Below, in pieces: positions 1,532-24,709 of a stretch of 28,010 bases of DNA. The notes under the pieces are model-generated. The model was not told the origin of the DNA. It searched no databases and was given only the letters and a program-made list of their open reading frames with translations. This DNA comes from a bacterium (GTDB lineage: Bacteria; Patescibacteriota; Minisyncoccia; JACQLN01): positions 1-28,010 of the forward strand of contig JAUYOU010000053.1 of the NCBI GenBank assembly GCA_030697855.1. The letters are read 5' to 3'. Every line of letters begins with the position of its first letter. The first letter of the stretch is position 1. The position numbers and the translations under genes were made by a program.

Positions 1532-1626
1532 AAGAGCGAAGCGATTAGTTGTAAATTTGAGCACCCAGCACCTTTTTACTTTAAAAAGGTGCTGGGTAAG
1601 GTTTGACAGCCAATCGCTCTTCTCTT
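1532..1626. repeat. Long nested hairpin filling the dnaN-yebC spacer
   Basis: Perfect 16-bp stem acccagcaccttttta (1563-1578) / taaaaaggtgctgggt (1582-1597), with outer arms agcgatt/aatcgct and aagag/ctctt. Confidence 0.85.
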
Positions 1627-16587: not shown

Positions 16588-19229
16588 TATGGATTATTAC
16601 CATCACAAAAATCTTTTACAAAGTGATTTTTATAGAAATCATATATAAAAGCCGAGTAAATTAATTGGAAACGATTTTTATAATATTTTTCCCACTCACT
16701 ATCACCACCATCAATAGATGTTCGCTTTCTTTCTTCTGGATCAGATATCACTATGCCTAGTCTATTTAAGACATCTGTTTGTTGCTGACCTATTTTTAAT
16801 TGACGTTCTTCCATCTCGCCTTTTATAGATTCAGCATTAATATCCATAGCTTCAGCTACGGCTTGGGCTATCCCTAGCCCTAATTGAGTTGGGTCTATTT
16901 TTTCTTTGGTATATGGATCTCCTTGAATATTCTCATCTTTTTGTAGGTCGTTATCTATTTCCTCTATGGAAGCCAATACTAAACCTAGAGCCTTTTCTAT
17001 TCCCTTATTCCCGTTTTCAGGGTCTTCCAAGCCATGAATTTTTTGTTTAGCTCTTACTTGTTCTTCTGGGGTGCCACTACTTACTAAATCTTTTTGAGCT
17101 TGTAACCACGCATTTCTTGTGTTTCTTTGAGCTACTCGTAATTCGGTATAAGCATTTCTTAACGTGACATCATTATCTTTTTTGCCGTTCGATAACGCGT
17201 CATTGTAAGTTTTTATTTTTTTAACTAAATCAAATGTTCTGCCTGCGCGGTCGTAGTCCAACAACACCGATGTATAAAGGGCAATTTTAGGTTGGTTTGT
17301 TTTTACAAAACCCGAATCATTTTCTAACCCATCAATTGTTCCAGCGCTATTTTGAGACAGAGCGTCATAGGAATCTGCGATTTGTTGGTACTCTTCGCTT
17401 TTAGTATCAGCCCGGTACGCTTTATCTATAATGTTACTTTTAGTATCATCTATTGAATTTCTCGGACTAGCTTCAAATCTACTCTTTAGATTTTTTATAT
17501 AGCTATTGTCGTTCCCAAACCAACCAACAACAGCTCCGTCGGGATCATTAAATGGTAATGCATTTTTGTAGTCAGTAGTGTCGATGATTTTTGTTTCTAA
17601 TGAGTAATCAATGGCTTTGCAAGAATTTTTACCATTGTAAATATTGTTGTTTTCGGACAAATCGTCAAAAGTTACACTAATCGCTTTCCATACATCACTT
17701 AATTTTTGATTTACAGCTTTATTTGCTAGGTATATGCCAGGATTATTTTCTTCCTTATGAAAATCAACTCTATCTCCATAACTCGTATAGAAAAGAAAGT
17801 CCATTTCATCGGATAATTTTTTAAAATTTTCTCTACCTCTTAAACTTTCATTAACAATACCGTCTGAATAGTTTATTTTTTCACTATCATTAAATTTACC
17901 AGCAATAAGATCTAATCGATTTTGAAGCTTTGTTAGTTGGTTACTTCTGTTGGTTGTTAGTTTGGTGGTGTCAGATTTTAGCCTTTCTGCGGCAGTGCGC
18001 AAATCAATCATTTGGTTTTGTAAACTTATCGCCTCTGGACTTTCTAGTCCGGTAAGTTGCTGCACCGTCCCACTGTTTTTAGTTGATGGATTAAAAGATT
18101 GTGTATAAGAACCTCTCCCACTTTTCATATATGATAAACCTTCGCGCGCAGCTCTATTAATTGCTGCATCTAATACGGCATCTAGTATGGAGGCTATATC
18201 GTTGGCACCAATCAAACTATCTATCCCTAGTTTTTCTAAGCCACCCCCAACCCATTCGCCAACAATACTGCCTGGCGTAATAATTTCTTCTTTGCCGCAA
18301 GTCGCGCCAGGTCGAACATTTCCAGGTGGATCTATTGGCACAGTTGTAAATTCTCCTGTGGGTACAAGTCTAGATGTTGGTATGTTTACATCCGAAATAC
18401 TAATTCCAAGTTCGCCTGTAATTTGTGGCCAAATCGTCGCCCAGTCGTATTCAAAATTTGCTTCATTTAGTATATTTCTAGCCCCAGGAACATCCTCCAA
18501 AGTTACCTCTCTTAATGTTCCATCATTTTCATAAAATTCTAATGTATAGTGAGCATACTTTGCCACCGAACATTTCTTTTGGTCTAAAAACCCTTTGCCC
18601 GCCGATATTTTTGCTGTTGCGGTATTTCCTGCAATAGCTGTTTCTGCTCCAATAAGTTGCGAAGATGCTAAATATGTTCCAGGTAATGTGTTTCTAGTTT
18701 CGTGTAATTTTAACCATGTGGTCCATCCACCGTCCTCGAAGTTTTCTGCAAAGTTAGTTAAGTTATCTTTTATATCTCCTAAACTGCAACGTAACTGGTC
18801 TTCTTGTAGTAGTTTAGTTCTGTTTACTAAAAGTTGAACATTAGCTTTAAACGGAGAACAAATATCTGTACCATGTTGTGTAAAAAATTTATCTATACCA
18901 GACACAGCTGCATATTGAGCATTATCTTTAATAAATTTACCTGTGTCTGTTATAAATCTTGGTTCACCATTACCCTGCACCCAGTTAACCAAATCGTTTT
19001 GAATCTGGGTTAACATTCTTTTTTTTAGTTTTCTTAGTCCTGCTTCAGCCAGCTTTGTTCCTATTTGATACAGAATTCTAGGAATGTCTCCCATCGTTGT
19101 GTTAAACGTAATGTCTCCAACACCCAAAAAAGCATCAGCTGTTTTTACTGTAAAAGGCGAAACAAAATAAAACCCCATAAGGCTTACTAAAACAAAAGAG
19201 GAAACAATTTTTTTAAATCTGTTAGACAC
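16587..19229 (-). CDS. Large exported hypothetical protein of the T4SS-like cluster
   Basis: 880 aa; signal peptide (TADA|FL); DICSPF, FEDGGWTTW, GKGFLDQKKC and ITPGS motifs; coiled-coil-like C-terminal half. Confidence 0.75.
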   Translation of the reverse strand: MSNRFKKIVSSFVLVSLMGFYFVSPFTVKTADAFLGVGDITFNTTMGDIPRILYQIGTKLAEAGLRKLKKRMLTQIQNDLVNWVQGNGEPRFITDTGKFIKDNAQYAAVSGIDKFFTQHGTDICSPFKANVQLLVNRTKLLQEDQLRCSLGDIKDNLTNFAENFEDGGWTTWLKLHETRNTLPGTYLASSQLIGAETAIAGNTATAKISAGKGFLDQKKCSVAKYAHYTLEFYENDGTLREVTLEDVPGARNILNEANFEYDWATIWPQITGELGISISDVNIPTSRLVPTGEFTTVPIDPPGNVRPGATCGKEEIITPGSIVGEWVGGGLEKLGIDSLIGANDIASILDAVLDAAINRAAREGLSYMKSGRGSYTQSFNPSTKNSGTVQQLTGLESPEAISLQNQMIDLRTAAERLKSDTTKLTTNRSNQLTKLQNRLDLIAGKFNDSEKINYSDGIVNESLRGRENFKKLSDEMDFLFYTSYGDRVDFHKEENNPGIYLANKAVNQKLSDVWKAISVTFDDLSENNNIYNGKNSCKAIDYSLETKIIDTTDYKNALPFNDPDGAVVGWFGNDNSYIKNLKSRFEASPRNSIDDTKSNIIDKAYRADTKSEEYQQIADSYDALSQNSAGTIDGLENDSGFVKTNQPKIALYTSVLLDYDRAGRTFDLVKKIKTYNDALSNGKKDNDVTLRNAYTELRVAQRNTRNAWLQAQKDLVSSGTPEEQVRAKQKIHGLEDPENGNKGIEKALGLVLASIEEIDNDLQKDENIQGDPYTKEKIDPTQLGLGIAQAVAEAMDINAESIKGEMEERQLKIGQQQTDVLNRLGIVISDPEERKRTSIDGGDSEWEKYYKNRFQLIYSAFIYDFYKNHFVKDFCDGNNP

Positions 19230-20008
19230 TATTTTATTTTCGATAACTTATCGTATTCAAGTAATGTGCTTTGCCAAAATTCTCCTAGTGTTTCTGTATC
19301 ATTAAAAACAATCAACGTCTTTAGTGGATCGCTATCGCTATTTATTAACGATTCAAATATTTTTTGAAGCGAATAAGCTGTAACTATTATTTTTTTATGC
19401 GTTTCTAGTAAACCTTCCGGTGTTTTTGTTTTTGATAAATTTTCAAAGACCGTGCTTAGTTTAGAAACCTGTGATTCAAGACTGCTTACATCGGCTCCAT
19501 CTTCGGATAGTTTCTCGGGGTTTGTTTTTGAGAATTCTTTAAGTGCATTAAAAATTGTTATAGCGTCTTTGTTTGTATCTTTAAAATATTGAACCCTAGC
19601 TGTTTTAGAATCTTTAACTATTTTTAAAACAGAATTGGGTATCTCGGGAAACAAGTTTAGGTTGTTACCTCTTAAATAAGGAATAATGGTGCTCGCCAAG
19701 AAATCACTACTAGCTATTTTTTCGGCAGTGTTTTGATTTATACCACCACTTTCCGAGACTATGGTTTTTAAAAAATCATCTGTTAAATTTTTGTCTTCTG
19801 GCGCAACATAAGCATTCTGGCTTTCTTTTTCTTGCTCGTTAAGTGTTAAAAGTTCGGCCAATAGTTCGTCGCTAGATTTACCAGCAGATAACGGCGTAGA
19901 AGCTTCTTCTTCGCCATAGGTTACAGTTGTTCTTAAAACTAAATAAGCGCCGCCAATCAAACCCAGTAGGAATATTACGATGGTAATTGTTAGGAAACGT
20001 TTGGACAT
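19229..20008 (-). CDS. Single-TM anchored hypothetical protein
   Basis: N-terminal TM and helical ectodomain. Its TAG overlaps the GTG of the next gene. Confidence 0.75.
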   Translation of the reverse strand: MSKRFLTITIVIFLLGLIGGAYLVLRTTVTYGEEEASTPLSAGKSSDELLAELLTLNEQEKESQNAYVAPEDKNLTDDFLKTIVSESGGINQNTAEKIASSDFLASTIIPYLRGNNLNLFPEIPNSVLKIVKDSKTARVQYFKDTNKDAITIFNALKEFSKTNPEKLSEDGADVSSLESQVSKLSTVFENLSKTKTPEGLLETHKKIIVTAYSLQKIFESLINSDSDPLKTLIVFNDTETLGEFWQSTLLEYDKLSKIK

Positions 20009-20016
20009 TATATTAA

Positions 20017-20443
20017 AAGCTTTTTAGGTGTTAGCTTTCTAGCTTCTTAGTTTATTAACCATTGAATTTAACATTCTCATTACTTCGTCTAGCAGGGTAT
20101 CAACCTTTGAATAATTTAGAGGTGCTGTTTTCGGCAATCTCTTCGCTATTTCTATTTGAGTTTCTAATTCGCCTCCCGAAGCAAATGCAGTTAACAGGAA
20201 TTGTCTAAATTCTTTGCGGTAACCACGCATTCTACCCTCAGCGATGTTTGAGGGAACTGATACGGATGCCCGCCTCATTTGTGAAGTTAGTCCGAATATT
20301 TCTTCTCGGGGAAACTTTTCTGTTAACTCATAAATAGCCACAACTAACTCAAGCGATTTCTGCCAGACAATCAATTGTTTATATGAATGAATCAACACAG
20401 ATTTTTCTAGGAAGCTAATATCCTAGAAAGCTAATAAGCTATT
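20017..20443 (-). mobile_element. Palindrome-bounded four-helix-bundle cassette (filled form)
   Basis: Left arm ttagctttctagcttcttag (20031-20050) and right arm ctaggaagctaatatcctagaaagctaataagcta (20407-20441). An empty counterpart sits at 23297-23353. Confidence 0.6.
20039..20398 (-). CDS. Four helix bundle protein (S23/23S rRNA IVP, bAvd-like family)
   Basis: SYKQLIVWQKS, FPREEIFGLTSQMRRASVSVPSNIAEG, FLLTAFASGGELETQ. Confidence 0.95.
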   Translation of the reverse strand: MLIHSYKQLIVWQKSLELVVAIYELTEKFPREEIFGLTSQMRRASVSVPSNIAEGRMRGYRKEFRQFLLTAFASGGELETQIEIAKRLPKTAPLNYSKVDTLLDEVMRMLNSMVNKLRS

Positions 20444-20527
20444 CTAAATTTTAACACTAATAAATGCTTTTTACGCCCGCAAATTTATTAATGTTTTCCA
20501 CAGAAAAACGGCAAAAACATTAATAAA

Positions 20528-21325
20528 CTATAATAGTTTATATAATTCGATGAGTTCTTCTTTGCTTAGGTTTTGAGCGCGTATTTTTTTATCGAATTCT
20601 AGTTGTTTAAAAATATTTTCTATAGTTTCAAGTTTGGCAGAATTTGTTTTTCTAAGATTATTAAAAAGTGTTTGGCGAGGCTGTTTAAAGGCGTTGTGTA
20701 GAAAGGCTATGTATTTGCCTAGATCTATGTCTTTTGGCCAATCTTGTGGAATTATCCTTATAATTGCCGAATCTACCTCTGGCTTTGGCCAGAAGTTATC
20801 CTTACCAACCATAAACAAAACCTCTGTTTTGGCCATAAACTGCACAAAAGACGATAAAAAGTTAGCTTTTGGTGGGTTTGCTGTAATTCTTTCGGCTACC
20901 TCCTTTTGAACCATAAGGATTAATTCTAATGGTTTATTGGGCGAAAGTAGGAATTTTTGTATTAACTTACCCGTTAAATAGTAAGGAATATTGGCTATAA
21001 CCCTATAGGGCGATTTGATTGTTGTTTCGTCAAATTTTAAAATGTCTCCTTCAACAATTTTTAATTTTTCATTTTTAATTTTTAAATCTAGCAACGACGA
21101 CAGATTCTCATCTTTCTCTATCGCTACTACGTTTGCTCCAGCCTCCAATAACGCCACGGTTAAGTTTCCTGTTCCTGGTCCTACTTCTAAAATATGTTCC
21201 CCTTTTTTAATATTGGCTTCAGAAATAATACGTTCTATTATTTCTTCGGAAACTAAAAAATTTTGACCAAAGTGTTTAATAGGTTCTAAGTCTTTTTCTT
21301 TTAGTTCTTTTTTTGTTCGATTCAT
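20528..21325 (-). CDS. rsmA: 16S rRNA m6(2)A dimethyltransferase RsmA/KsgA
   Basis: KHFGQNFL, LEVGPGTGNLT, VIANIPYYLT, LMVQKEVAERI and FWPKPEVDSAII. Confidence 0.97.
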   Translation of the reverse strand: MNRTKKELKEKDLEPIKHFGQNFLVSEEIIERIISEANIKKGEHILEVGPGTGNLTVALLEAGANVVAIEKDENLSSLLDLKIKNEKLKIVEGDILKFDETTIKSPYRVIANIPYYLTGKLIQKFLLSPNKPLELILMVQKEVAERITANPPKANFLSSFVQFMAKTEVLFMVGKDNFWPKPEVDSAIIRIIPQDWPKDIDLGKYIAFLHNAFKQPRQTLFNNLRKTNSAKLETIENIFKQLEFDKKIRAQNLSKEELIELYKLL

Positions 21326-21360
21326 ACTTTAGGGTTTAGAAATTAGTGTTTTGGATTTTA

Positions 21361-23271
21361 TTATATATCCAAGACCTCGCCTTCAAATTGGTATTCTTCA
21401 AAATCAACCAGTCTTATTGGTATATCACCCAAAAAACGCGAAGGCAAGGCGGGTTCACTTTTTCCATAAATAGTTCTTCTTCGTGTAAAAACAAAATATG
21501 CTTTTTCTTTAGCTCGGGTTATACCAACATAAGCCAATCTCCTTTCTTCTTCCATTTGTGTTTGTTCGAACATGCTTCGAGAATGTGGTAATAGGCCTTC
21601 CTCGGCACCAATAATAAATACTACAGGGAATTCTAAGCCTTTAGCGGAATGTAACGTCATTAAATTTAATGTTCCGTTTTCTTCGGAAATATCGTCGGCA
21701 GAAGTTGTTAATGTTATTTCTTCTAAAAAAGAAGATAAACCTTCTTCTGTTTCTAAAATATCGAACTTAGTAGCTACAGTAATAAGTTCTAAAATATTTT
21801 CCCAGCGCGATTCGCCTTCTTCGGTGCCATCTACACAATAAGTTTTATAATCTATTTTTTCTAATAAAAATTTTATAAGTTCGGAAACTTTTTTGTTGGC
21901 CGATTCTTTTTTAATTTCACTAATTAAGGCAAGAAAGTTTTCAAACTTAGTGTGTTTAAAAGCAAGAATATATTCGGCTAAAAGAATTTGGTTGAGTGTG
22001 GTTTTGCCTATGCCACGTGGCGGAACATTAACAATTCTTTTTAAACTAATTAAATCTTTTTCGTTTTGGATAAAACGTAAGTAAGCAATAATATCTTTAA
22101 CTTCGCGCCTTTCGTAAAATTTAGTAGCCCCCACCATTCTATATGGCCAACCGGCGCGTATTACAGCTTCTTCTATGGCTCGGGATTGAGCATTGGTGCG
22201 GTAAAGAATAACAAAATCGTTTAGATCGCGCGCGATTTCTGGGTTTTTTCTTAGTACTTTCTTAATTTCTTCTGTTACAAAAAAACCTTCTTCGGTTTCA
22301 TTGTTTGTTTGAATTATTTTTATTTTTTCTCCTTCGCCGCGTTCGGTCCATAATTTTTTTTCTGTTTTAAAAACATTTTTTTCTATAACAGCGTGGGCCG
22401 CATCTAAAACATTTTGAGAGCTTCTGTAGTTTTCTTCTAAAAATATTATTTTAGTACCAGGGTAATCTTTTTCAAAATTAAGCATGTTTCTAAAATCGGA
22501 TCCTCTAAACAGATATATCGATTGCCAATCGTCACCCACCACACAAATATTTTTGTGTGTTTGGGCCAACATTTTTAACAAAGTATATTGAGCATGGTTA
22601 GTGTCTTGGTATTCGTCTACCAAAATATATTTAAATTGGTTTTGATATTTTTCTAGTACAGCTGGATTATTTTTTAATATTTTAACCAACAACAAAAGCA
22701 GGTCATCAAAATCTAAAGCATTAGCTTCTTTTAACCTACCCTCATATTTTTCGAAAACTTTGGCTATTATTTTTTCTCTAAAGTTTCCTGCTTTTTCGGC
22801 ATAAATCGTGGCATTAACAAGCTCGTTTTTTTGGCGCGATATTGCCGAATATATTCCATTTGCTTTAAATTGATCTGAATCTAAACCAAGTTCAGCAATA
22901 ATTTCTTTTAAAAGAGAAAGTACGTCGCTTACATCGTATATAACAAAATTTTTACCATAACCAATATTATCTATTTCTTTTCTTAAAATTCTTGCGGCAA
23001 AAGAATGAAACGTTCCCAAAAAAACCGACATATTTTTATTTTCGCCTAAAAGTTTTTGGACCCGGTTTTTCATTTCGCCCGCAGCTTTATTTGTAAAAGT
23101 TAAAGCCAGAATATTTTCTGGAGAAATTCCTTGTTCTATTAAATAGGCAATTCTATGAGTAAGGGCTTTGGTTTTTCCGCTGCCTGCGCCGGCAATTATT
23201 AAAACGGGACCATTTATAGTAGTTACCGCTTCGCGTTGTTCTTTGTTTAACGATTCTAGAATATTAGACAT
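21361..23271 (-). CDS. pcrA: UvrD/PcrA SF1A DNA helicase (compact form)
   Basis: AGAGSGKT, LTFTNKAA, LVDEYQDTN, VGDDWQSIY, LEENYRS, LMTLHSAKGLEF and EEERRLAYVGITRA. Confidence 0.95.
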   Translation of the reverse strand: MSNILESLNKEQREAVTTINGPVLIIAGAGSGKTKALTHRIAYLIEQGISPENILALTFTNKAAGEMKNRVQKLLGENKNMSVFLGTFHSFAARILRKEIDNIGYGKNFVIYDVSDVLSLLKEIIAELGLDSDQFKANGIYSAISRQKNELVNATIYAEKAGNFREKIIAKVFEKYEGRLKEANALDFDDLLLLLVKILKNNPAVLEKYQNQFKYILVDEYQDTNHAQYTLLKMLAQTHKNICVVGDDWQSIYLFRGSDFRNMLNFEKDYPGTKIIFLEENYRSSQNVLDAAHAVIEKNVFKTEKKLWTERGEGEKIKIIQTNNETEEGFFVTEEIKKVLRKNPEIARDLNDFVILYRTNAQSRAIEEAVIRAGWPYRMVGATKFYERREVKDIIAYLRFIQNEKDLISLKRIVNVPPRGIGKTTLNQILLAEYILAFKHTKFENFLALISEIKKESANKKVSELIKFLLEKIDYKTYCVDGTEEGESRWENILELITVATKFDILETEEGLSSFLEEITLTTSADDISEENGTLNLMTLHSAKGLEFPVVFIIGAEEGLLPHSRSMFEQTQMEEERRLAYVGITRAKEKAYFVFTRRRTIYGKSEPALPSRFLGDIPIRLVDFEEYQFEGEVLDI

Positions 23272-23277
23272 CACAAA

Positions 23278-23286
23278 ATTATAGCA
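23278..23286 (-). promoter_or_regulatory. Extended -10 promoter giving a probably leaderless pcrA mRNA
   Basis: TGCTATAAT, followed by 6 nt and ATG at 23271. Confidence 0.6.
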
Positions 23287-23296
23287 GATATAAATT

Positions 23297-23353
23297 AAGC
23301 TTCTTAGCTTTCTAGCTTCCTAGTAAGCTAATTCCTAAAAAGCTAAAAGCTAG
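23297..23353. repeat. Empty palindromic element matching both ends of the four-helix-bundle cassette
   Basis: 23304-23323 matches 20031-20050 at 19/20. 23325-23352 matches 20412-20441 with two 1-nt indels and one substitution. Confidence 0.9.
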
Positions 23354-23371
23354 TGCTTGTGGACTATTCGT

Positions 23372-23400
23372 TTGACCCAATGCCCCAAAAAAGCTAGTAT
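23372..23400 (+). promoter_or_regulatory. Putative sigma70 promoter upstream of the LysM/M23 gene
   Basis: TTGACC (23372-23377), a 17-nt spacer, then TAGTAT (23395-23400). Confidence 0.5.
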
Positions 23401-23590
23401 TTACCTATAACCCTGTCTTGCAGGGTTTTGTGCTTAAGTAAGCTTTCAAGCCAGTATTTAGCTATTTTGGGGTTAGAATTGTTATCTAAACCAAGGCTAG
23501 CCAAGTAAAGGTAAATATCCGATTAGTATTTGGTATAAAATTTTATCTTTTTTCGAAAATATTCTCGCTTCTCTAAAGAGCAAGCGAGCT

Positions 23591-24709
23591 TTGTTTTTAA
23601 GTTTTTCTTTATCTAAAAAACTGGTCTACACATCAGTTTTTTTGTTTATTTCACTTTTTACATCTATTTTATTATTTTCTGGTAATAATTCTGCCAGTCT
23701 AGATTCGGATAATAAAAATATTGTAGAAGAAATAGATACGGAAGACGAAAGTTTTATTAAAAAAATAATACCTCAAGAATCTCCAGTTACTTCGGCTATT
23801 CTTTTTGCTGGTAATTTAGAAAGTAAACTTAGCGGAATTTTTCGAGGAACAAATACAATTAATGCCTTAGGTGGTCCAGATGAAAGTTCTGTTGGTTTAG
23901 AAACTGTAGGCAATGCTTTAGTAGCTCAAGGTTCGGTGCTAGCCATAATTCCGGCGAGTGCAGAAAGTTCTGTTTCAGATGGAAATATACTTACTTACGA
24001 AGTTGAAGCTGGGGATAGCTTAGAATCTATAGCTGATGATTTTGGAATTTCTGTGGATACTTTGCTTAGTGCAAATAATTTACCTAAAGGGACTAAATTA
24101 AAGATTGGCGATAAAATTTCTATTTTGCCGGTTGACGGTGTGCGTCACACAGTAAAACTTGGAGATACCATTAAATCTATAGCTATAAAATACAATGCCG
24201 ATGAAGCTAGAATACTAGCTTTTAACGGTTTACCTGATGATGGCAGAATTGTTACGGGCCAAACTTTAACAATTCCTGGTGGAGAGTTTCATGTGCCAAT
24301 CAGCACAAAATATGCTCCAGCTCAAAGCCCTTCTCCTGATAGTTTGCCAAATATTGCTGGTTATTATGGACGCCCATCTAATGGGCGTGTAACTTTCGGT
24401 TTACATAGATTTAATGCTGTAGATATTGGTGGTCACGAATGGTGCAATACACCGCTTTATGCTTCGGCCGCAGGTACGGTTATTACAGCTGATGCTCAGG
24501 GCTGGAATGGAGGTTATGGCAGGTATATAAAAATTTCGCACGATAATGGCACCATTACTTTGTATGCTCACGCTTCGCAATTATTAATTGGTGAAGGCGT
24601 TAAAGTTAAAAAAGGCCAAACAATTGCCTTGATGGGTTCTACTGGCAATGCTACTGGTTGCCATGTTCACTTTGAAATTAGAGGCGCCAAAAATCCTTTT
24701 ACGAATTAA
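23591..24709 (+). CDS. LysM-LysM-M23 peptidoglycan endopeptidase
   Basis: N-terminal TM; two LysM repeats (YEVEAGDSLESIA, HTVKLGDTIKSIA); M23 motifs GLHRFNAVDIG, TLYAH and GSTGNATGCHVHFEIR. The start codon is uncertain. Confidence 0.92.
   Translation: MFLSFSLSKKLVYTSVFLFISLFTSILLFSGNNSASLDSDNKNIVEEIDTEDESFIKKIIPQESPVTSAILFAGNLESKLSGIFRGTNTINALGGPDESSVGLETVGNALVAQGSVLAIIPASAESSVSDGNILTYEVEAGDSLESIADDFGISVDTLLSANNLPKGTKLKIGDKISILPVDGVRHTVKLGDTIKSIAIKYNADEARILAFNGLPDDGRIVTGQTLTIPGGEFHVPISTKYAPAQSPSPDSLPNIAGYYGRPSNGRVTFGLHRFNAVDIGGHEWCNTPLYASAAGTVITADAQGWNGGYGRYIKISHDNGTITLYAHASQLLIGEGVKVKKGQTIALMGSTGNATGCHVHFEIRGAKNPFTN

Follow-up and report, generated by a model that had tools for sequence, protein, structure and literature searches.

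The window analyzed here is a stretch of 28,010 nucleotides (nt) from a Patescibacteriota genome (assembly GCA_030697855.1, contig JAUYOU010000053.1). It constitutes contig C6 of the genome, hereafter G000, which comprises 685 kb in 92 contigs at 36% GC. Within it, a small gene for a predicted four-helix-bundle (4HB) protein lies between rsmA and p259, a gene for a membrane-anchored protein, and is enclosed by two arms of an imperfect inverted repeat. We refer to the gene and its arms together as the cassette. A gene-less hairpin built from the same arms lies 2.9 kb away, upstream of pcrA/uvrD. All four genes occupy the minus strand, and an M23/LysM peptidase gene at 23591 runs divergently from them. 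The order p259-rsmA-pcrA is conserved in the genus and the family. The features of the locus are listed in Table 1.

Table 1. Features of the cassette locus, in window coordinates.
Feature	Position	Strand	Remarks
p259	19229-20008	-	259-aa membrane-anchored protein without annotation
First ~12 codons of p259 (MSKRFLTITIVI)	19973..20008	-	Common only to filled alleles
3' arm (transcribed strand)	20015..20050	-	CTAA-GAAGCTAG-AAAGCTAA-CACCTAA-AAAGCTTTT
4HB gene, PF05635 / 23S_rRNA_IVP	20039-20398	-	119 aa; Pfam match
5' arm (transcribed strand)	20407..20441	-	TAGCTTA-TTAGCTTT-CTAGGAT-ATTAGCTTC-CTAG
Promoter-like block	20446..20483	-	Read by eye; conserved in all 9 genomes compared
Perfect 14-bp hairpin	20484..20527	-	Right after the rsmA stop; conserved across the family; outside the cassette
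rsmA	20528-21325	-	
pcrA/uvrD	21361-23274	-	
Gene-less hairpin	23298..23352		Arms as in the cassette, joined at a single CTAG; ~25 nt upstream of the pcrA start codon

The 4HB protein matches the hidden Markov model of family PF05635 over 106/106 profile positions (E=1.8e-35; 121.8 bits, cut-off 33.8). By sequence, its closest solved relative is the pentameric Xanthomonas protein XCC0516 (PDB 2GSC, E=6e-23), and 2RLD is also matched (E=2e-4). Homology indicates that translation likely starts at a TTG (20395), or else at a GTG (20398). The TAG stop codon (20039-20041) lies within the 3' arm of the transcribed strand, which is the left arm by position, as a preliminary description of the sequence had reported. 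Members of PF05635 were first identified in intervening sequences (IVSs) of 23S rRNA. An Rfam search of positions 19000-24000 found no rRNA, and the cassette sits between rsmA and p259 rather than in helix 25 or 45 of 23S rRNA. We also considered a role as the Avd protein of a diversity-generating retroelement. This was rejected: the only RVT_1 gene of the genome is on contig C33, beside another, weak PF05635 hit, and the bAvd score (30.1) is below the cut-off of 40. Elsewhere in the genome (C84:900-1124), a PF05635-like N-terminal half occurs within a longer open frame of about 208 aa, and the same layout (202-253 aa) is found in seven relatives.

The arms are composed of heptamers. The 5' arm is an inverted array of TAGCTTn units with one odd TAGGA-type unit. 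The left side of the gene carries solely TAGCTT-sense units and the right side solely AAGCTA-sense units, in mirrored order. A repeat search recovered 23 nt of each arm (20031-20053 and 20412-20434; 83% complementary, 358 nt apart). The arm positions given in the preliminary description (20031-20050 and 20407-20441, with the gene-less copy at 23304-23352) are all right, and the arms also reach beyond them: on the transcribed strand, the 3' arm corresponds to the reverse complement of roughly 20015-20050, with one additional unit on its outer side, and stops a few nucleotides short of the p259 ATG (20008). In a predicted RNA fold of positions 20005-20450, both arms close the cassette in the minimum free energy structure as well as in the centroid (z=-3.5). 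This architecture extends beyond the window. Across 28 related genomes, we scored inverted repeats flanking PF05635 genes by local complement alignment against neighboring-gene controls. Flanking repeats exceeded the 95th percentile of the controls for 24 of the 28 genes, and exceeded the control maximum for 19.

The arms also belong to a family of dispersed hairpins. About 20 intergenic hairpins in G000 have TAGCTTn units in one arm and nAAGCTA units in the other, two to four per arm around a short loop, and most of these span the gap between a stop and a start codon to within 1-7 nt. Strictly defined pairs (at least two AGCTT followed by at least two AAGCT within 80 nt) occur 17 times in the genome but only 0-1 times in each of 20 Markov shuffles, so that arm-like pairs are far more frequent than base composition would produce. 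Inverted-repeat loci in general are also abundant (229, compared with 17-27 in shuffles, about 21). Between 17 and 22 TAGCTT hairpins lack a gene, and thus the palindrome is dispersed without it; the only filled one is that in the window.

One of the gene-less hairpins, at 23.3 kb, resembles the cassette more closely than the rest. Its left half (23304-23323) is identical to 20031-20050 at 19/20 positions, confirming the figure in the preliminary description. Its right half (23320-23352) differs from 20407-20441 by two 1-nt indels, as described, and by two substitutions rather than the single one reported. No other of the 22 family members aligns as well with the joined cassette arms (local score 67, compared with 52 for the runner-up), and this copy also has the odd (A)TCCTA(G/A) unit found interrupting the right arm of the cassette. 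The best score and the common odd unit together indicate that this hairpin is related to the cassette arms by descent, beyond sharing a unit type. The region upstream of pcrA lacks it in G004, G007, G003, G006, G005, G002, G001, and G009, which have other hairpin types or none there. The 23.3-kb hairpin is a paralogous copy, found in G000 alone among the nine genomes, and is not the excision product of the cassette.

Two further gene-less versions of the same arms were found. In G007, a hairpin in the spacer between p259 and rsmA, across the promoter/terminator block from the cassette site, can be aligned from end to end with the joined G000 arms; it carries 3 additional bases where the two arms meet, and a segment of its right arm is duplicated. 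In contigs of two sister samples (runs X3/X4), the left and right arms are separated by a loop of 19 nt. The preliminary description of one palindrome in filled and empty form is fair in this sense, as applied to the forms themselves rather than to a conversion between them at one site.

We find that the cassette itself is variably present at the orthologous position. The p259/rsmA site is filled in G000, G006, G005, and G002, and empty in G004, G007, G003, G001, and G009, such that the cassette is not fixed and behaves as the cassette-like unit that the preliminary description had proposed, gene and arms being present or absent together. The outgroup genus is of the empty type. G004, the closest relative of G000 (pcrA 96% identical), carries an empty allele. 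Filled alleles differ among themselves: G006 has the same arms (5' arm 34/35 and 3' arm 33/38 identical) around a protein that is 89% identical, G005 has a 71% identical protein between arms of TTAGGA-type units, and G002 has a different PF05635 subfamily (36% over 61 aligning residues) between TAGTT-type arms.

The five empty genomes also lack the arms at this site. Furthermore, the first ~12-16 codons of p259 differ by allele, reading MINHPRKYFW... in empty and MSKRFLTI... in filled genomes. The missing arms and the different p259 N-terminus indicate that the two forms are alternative alleles of a ~60-nt and a ~475-nt segment, respectively, rather than the two states of a clean insertion. 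A target-site duplication was sought in the filled/empty pairs and none was found; the whole spacer is replaced. We also examined the source sample, using Logan assembled contigs. One contig matches the filled form with 0 differences, and a co-occurring diverged strain carries an empty allele with a joint at 19956->20468. A same-strain 20050/20407 junction was absent from the contigs of the source sample, although assembled contigs leave rare variants possible.

The segment bordering the cassette on the rsmA side is conserved. An extended -10 element (TGTTAAAAT, 20448-20456, minus strand) lies 6 nt before the 5' arm and reads TGGTATAAT in G006, G005, and G002. A simple promoter scan made no call at this element, which was recognized by eye. 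In empty alleles, the extended -10 block stands directly before a near-leaderless p259, and it may act as a promoter, driving p259 in those genomes. The 14-bp hairpin adjoining the block is likely the rsmA terminator.

These comparisons bear on the mechanism advanced in the preliminary description, in which site-specific recombination at a 4-nt (C/T)TAG core would bring a naked gene into the axis of an already existing palindrome or remove it from there. Several features point in that direction. Joining the arms through their common CTAG yields the 23.3-kb hairpin, the gene-less versions with 3- and 19-nt loops break at the same inner arm ends, and the cassette arms match the resident hairpin family. 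In addition, hairpin centers do get altered, as one TAGCTT hairpin in G004 has another palindrome at its center. We nevertheless consider this mechanism improbable. Orthologous empty sites are armless at three positions with both flanks read and at a fourth with one, and at p259/rsmA the p259 N-terminus differs as well. CTAG is self-complementary and is the constant part of every heptamer (TTAG/CTAG + CTTn). It thus cannot be distinguished from the base pairs at the inner end of the stem, and provides no evidence for a crossover core or a target duplication. No recombinase is encoded nearby, the sole Xer-like integrase (PF00589) being on contig C92, and the contigs of the source sample yielded no same-strain excised junction, with the reservation about rare variants given above. 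Insertion or excision at the axis is therefore the part of the preliminary description that we do not support.

Armless empty sites are not restricted to p259/rsmA. We compared the whole of G004 (592 kb) with G000, using sites with flanks at 85-96% identity. None of the four strong PF05635 cassettes is common to both genomes: those on C6 and C30 belong to G000, and those at C1:29384 and C2:43055 to G004. At the C6, C1:29384, and C30 sites, the genome without the gene is also without the arms, although only one flank is readable at C30, where the G000 contig ends in an arm. The gene at C2:43055 is not enclosed; a hairpin lies wholly upstream of it and a terminator after it, and the cassette is missing from G000. 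Every empty orthologous site that we examined lacks arms, namely p259/rsmA, site A, and site B, each with both flanks read, and C30 with one. Filled and empty pairs thus recur elsewhere, as a cassette would lead one to expect. Gene-less hairpins also turn over. Of 20 G000 hairpins that could be placed in G004, about 10 are conserved, about 5 are replaced by a hairpin of another unit type, and about 4 are absent.

Site A illustrates how the occupant of a single intergenic site can change. It holds a TAGCTT-armed 4HB cassette in G003, G004, and G001, a CTTGGA-armed 4HB cassette in G008, and a GIY-YIG gene between ACCCAGCACC inverted repeats in G000. Four other genomes have only a short palindrome.

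Other palindromes occur in these genomes as well. A second, parallel family in G000, ACCCAGCACCTTTT...AAAAGGTGCTGGGT, has nine gene-less copies with loops of 15-81 nt, one of them at window positions 1563-1597. A tenth copy (C29:9340-9620), in which a small GIY-YIG nuclease gene forms the 263-nt loop, occupies the intergenic site that holds 4HB cassettes in relatives. In the same spacer, and at the point where G000 has this GIY-YIG palindrome, a 17-nt hairpin is present in G009. At G004 C4:9674-9733 (ortholog of G000 C52:1939-2007), the central units of a TAGCTT hairpin are replaced by the palindrome CCAGTAACG...CGTTACTGG, forming a hairpin within a hairpin. At G004 C6:25758-26172 (ortholog of G000 C87:1557-1624), a promoter, an 80-aa zinc-ribbon-like open reading frame (ORF), and a terminator stand in place of the TAGCTT left arm, and the right arm is kept. 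Finally, three Y1_Tnp genes, which resemble REP-associated tyrosine transposases (RAYTs; REP, repetitive extragenic palindrome), occur in G000 (C42:4983-5219, C47:1520-1768, and C52:8988-9218), each among short palindromes of its own.

The 4HB gene is conserved as a coding sequence. Between G000 and G006, it has a dN of 0.055 and a dS of about 0.9-1.4 at 89% protein identity. This strong purifying selection indicates that the protein is made and used. Given that synonymous sites are near saturation, the identity of the arms between these two genomes is far above the neutral expectation. This conservation is one of three observations that bear on whether the cassette is a coincidence, that is, a small gene flanked by two unrelated heptamer arrays or by ordinary terminator and promoter hairpins. 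The genome is indeed very palindrome-rich, and heptamer arrays abut many genes. However, each side of the gene carries units of one sense in mirrored order, the majority of the relatives' PF05635 genes are armed when compared with controls, and the arms are kept while synonymous sites are not. We therefore give coincidence, which was already disfavored, almost no weight.

Third-position identity between G000 and G006 is 0.60 in the 4HB gene and 0.43 in adjoining p259, a contrast suggestive of a more shallow cassette history. In G000, the body of p259 is, in turn, 89% identical to that of G004, which carries the empty allele. The simplest reading of these two observations is homologous recombination, and the filled allele thus most likely entered the G000 lineage via the flanking genes. 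A recent transfer of the cassette from G006 to G000 is ruled out by the overall nucleotide identity of 71% across the region.

Two side observations concern the neighboring helicase gene. Inside pcrA (window 21479-21577, minus strand), Rfam yields only a match below threshold (37.6 bits; gathering score 65.2) to RF03531, a helicase-gene sRNA; conservation of the coding sequence is the probable cause. The pcrA gene of G006 (contig C3) contains an insertion of roughly 750 nt between the equivalents of residues 252 and 278 of the G000 protein, which could be an intein or a homing element.

The abundance of hairpins with the same units as the cassette raises the question of whether the 4HB protein acts on them. 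In such a partnership, comparable to that between RAYTs and REPINs (paired, inverted REP sequences), the protein would bind heptamer arrays in trans and maintain or spread them, the cassette being autonomous and the ~20 hairpins, among them the near-identical copy upstream of pcrA, nonautonomous. The abundance of arrays does follow the arm type of resident cassettes. Counting both orientations, TAGCTT arrays number 40 in G000 (control 1), 46 in G004 (0), and 34 in G003 (0). G008 has a TAGGGT-armed cassette and 38 TAGGGT arrays (control 2), which are near zero elsewhere, and also a CTTGGA-armed cassette and many AGCTTGGAGCTT arrays. Three G000 hairpins at separate loci (C29, C52, and C79) are near-identical by eye, including their loops, which points to recent spread, and both gene-less copies with the peculiar unit order of the cassette are near the cassette locus.

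Other observations do not fit such a partnership. G007 has about 50 TAGCTT arrays, yet no TAGCTT-armed 4HB gene was found in it. The second G000 cassette (C30, with GAATTA units) has no accompanying hairpin family. The 4HB fold has no known catalytic motif, and G000 has three Y1 transposases of its own. Protein similarity also does not track arm type: the G000 protein is 71% identical to that of G005, which has different arms, and 67% identical to the site A protein of G004, which has the same arm type. A specificity of each protein for its heptamer is thus unsupported by simple identity comparison. Overall, we regard action of the protein in trans as unlikely, though a good deal less so than coincidence. 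The same doubtful standing applies to the broader proposal that 4HB genes and heptamer hairpins form a two-part selfish system residing in gene gaps, and in rRNA helices in other bacteria, in which the cassette would be the source, local copying that joins the arms at the axis would generate from it the gene-less hairpins of like unit order, and the protein would bind, protect, or help copy the arrays. If true, this system would explain why the abundant heptamer type matches the cassette arms.

The closest parallel to the locus is provided by the ORF-bearing IVSs of 23S rRNA, such as those of Coxiella burnetii (helix 45) and Leptospira (PMC4990558). In the Coxiella IVS, S23p lies within the loop, a terminal stem of 28 bp is formed, tandem heptamers precede the S23p ORF, and RNase III cuts the element (PMC4990558). 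The cassette shares the PF05635 protein in the loop, the terminal inverted repeats that close a predicted stem around the ORF, and the tandem heptamers beside it. Like IVSs, it is sporadic among relatives and has forms with and without an ORF. Unlike them, it lies between a promoter-like block and a protein-coding gene, and its arms are part of a genome-wide family of intergenic hairpins. The Coxiella ORF is, moreover, reported to be decaying, whereas the 4HB gene is under purifying selection.

The dispersed hairpins, for their part, recall the intergenic GGGAATC heptamer arrays of Xanthomonas, which form 70-75 convergent pairs per genome (PMC4692102). Both occur preferentially between co-oriented ORFs, near stop and start codons, and often as convergent pairs capable of forming stem-loops. 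The Xanthomonas units differ in being G-rich and are read as quadruplex formers; no gene is named between those arrays, and S23p has 0 occurrences in the report (PMC4692102).

Similarities to mobile elements are more limited. As in REP/REPIN and RAYT systems, inverted copies of a palindromic repeat stand on either side of a gene, and the same genome has many dispersed copies of the repeat that lack it, but the flanked gene encodes a four-helix bundle rather than a Y1 (HUH) transposase, and the Y1_Tnp hits are on other contigs. The locus resembles integron cassettes and their attC sites in that a small gene without a promoter accompanies an imperfect palindrome, and in that the occupant of a fixed site can be swapped. 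However, there is no IntI, attI, or cassette array, and the palindrome brackets the gene instead of trailing it. An insertion sequence or a miniature inverted-repeat transposable element was rejected, as PF05635 is the sole gene in the element, with no transposase and no target-site duplication.

We therefore favor, with some confidence, the reading that the locus is an IVS-type hairpin cassette that resides in an mRNA leader, outside rRNA, and that is gained, lost, or swapped as a whole unit. By analogy with IVSs that do or do not carry the S23p ORF, it is similarly probable that hairpins with a gene and those lacking one represent two forms of a single element family. The cassette would be transcribed from the conserved promoter-like -10 element upstream of its 5' arm, and its arms may then pair in the RNA. 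As in rRNA IVSs, the resulting stem could serve as a substrate for RNase III or as a 5' stabilizer, insulating the cassette from the host message. G000 does encode an RNase III (C15:2102-2494).

Several points weigh against this reading. The stem of the cassette is short and bulged, with three helices of 5-8 bp. In the absence of a target duplication and an adjacent recombinase, the first entry of a cassette into a gap is left unexplained. Furthermore, the arms of G005 are made of other units, so that arm sequence is not fixed to the gene, which requires a process of replacement or homogenization. A change of unit type in both arms while the gene stays, as between G000/G006 and G005, is not explained by the model.

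The origin and purpose of rRNA IVSs and of their S23p, or four-helix-bundle, ORFs have been open questions since about 1990, as has the meaning of over-represented intergenic heptamers. The locus described here links IVS genes and intergenic heptamers in one small genome. Cassette turnover is complete between genomes of about 90% identity, and the armless state of empty orthologous sites constrains any model of their mobility. The census of filled and empty sites and the turnover data make the locus informative in this respect, and it represents a compact system comprising a single protein, a single heptamer, and a single RNase III.

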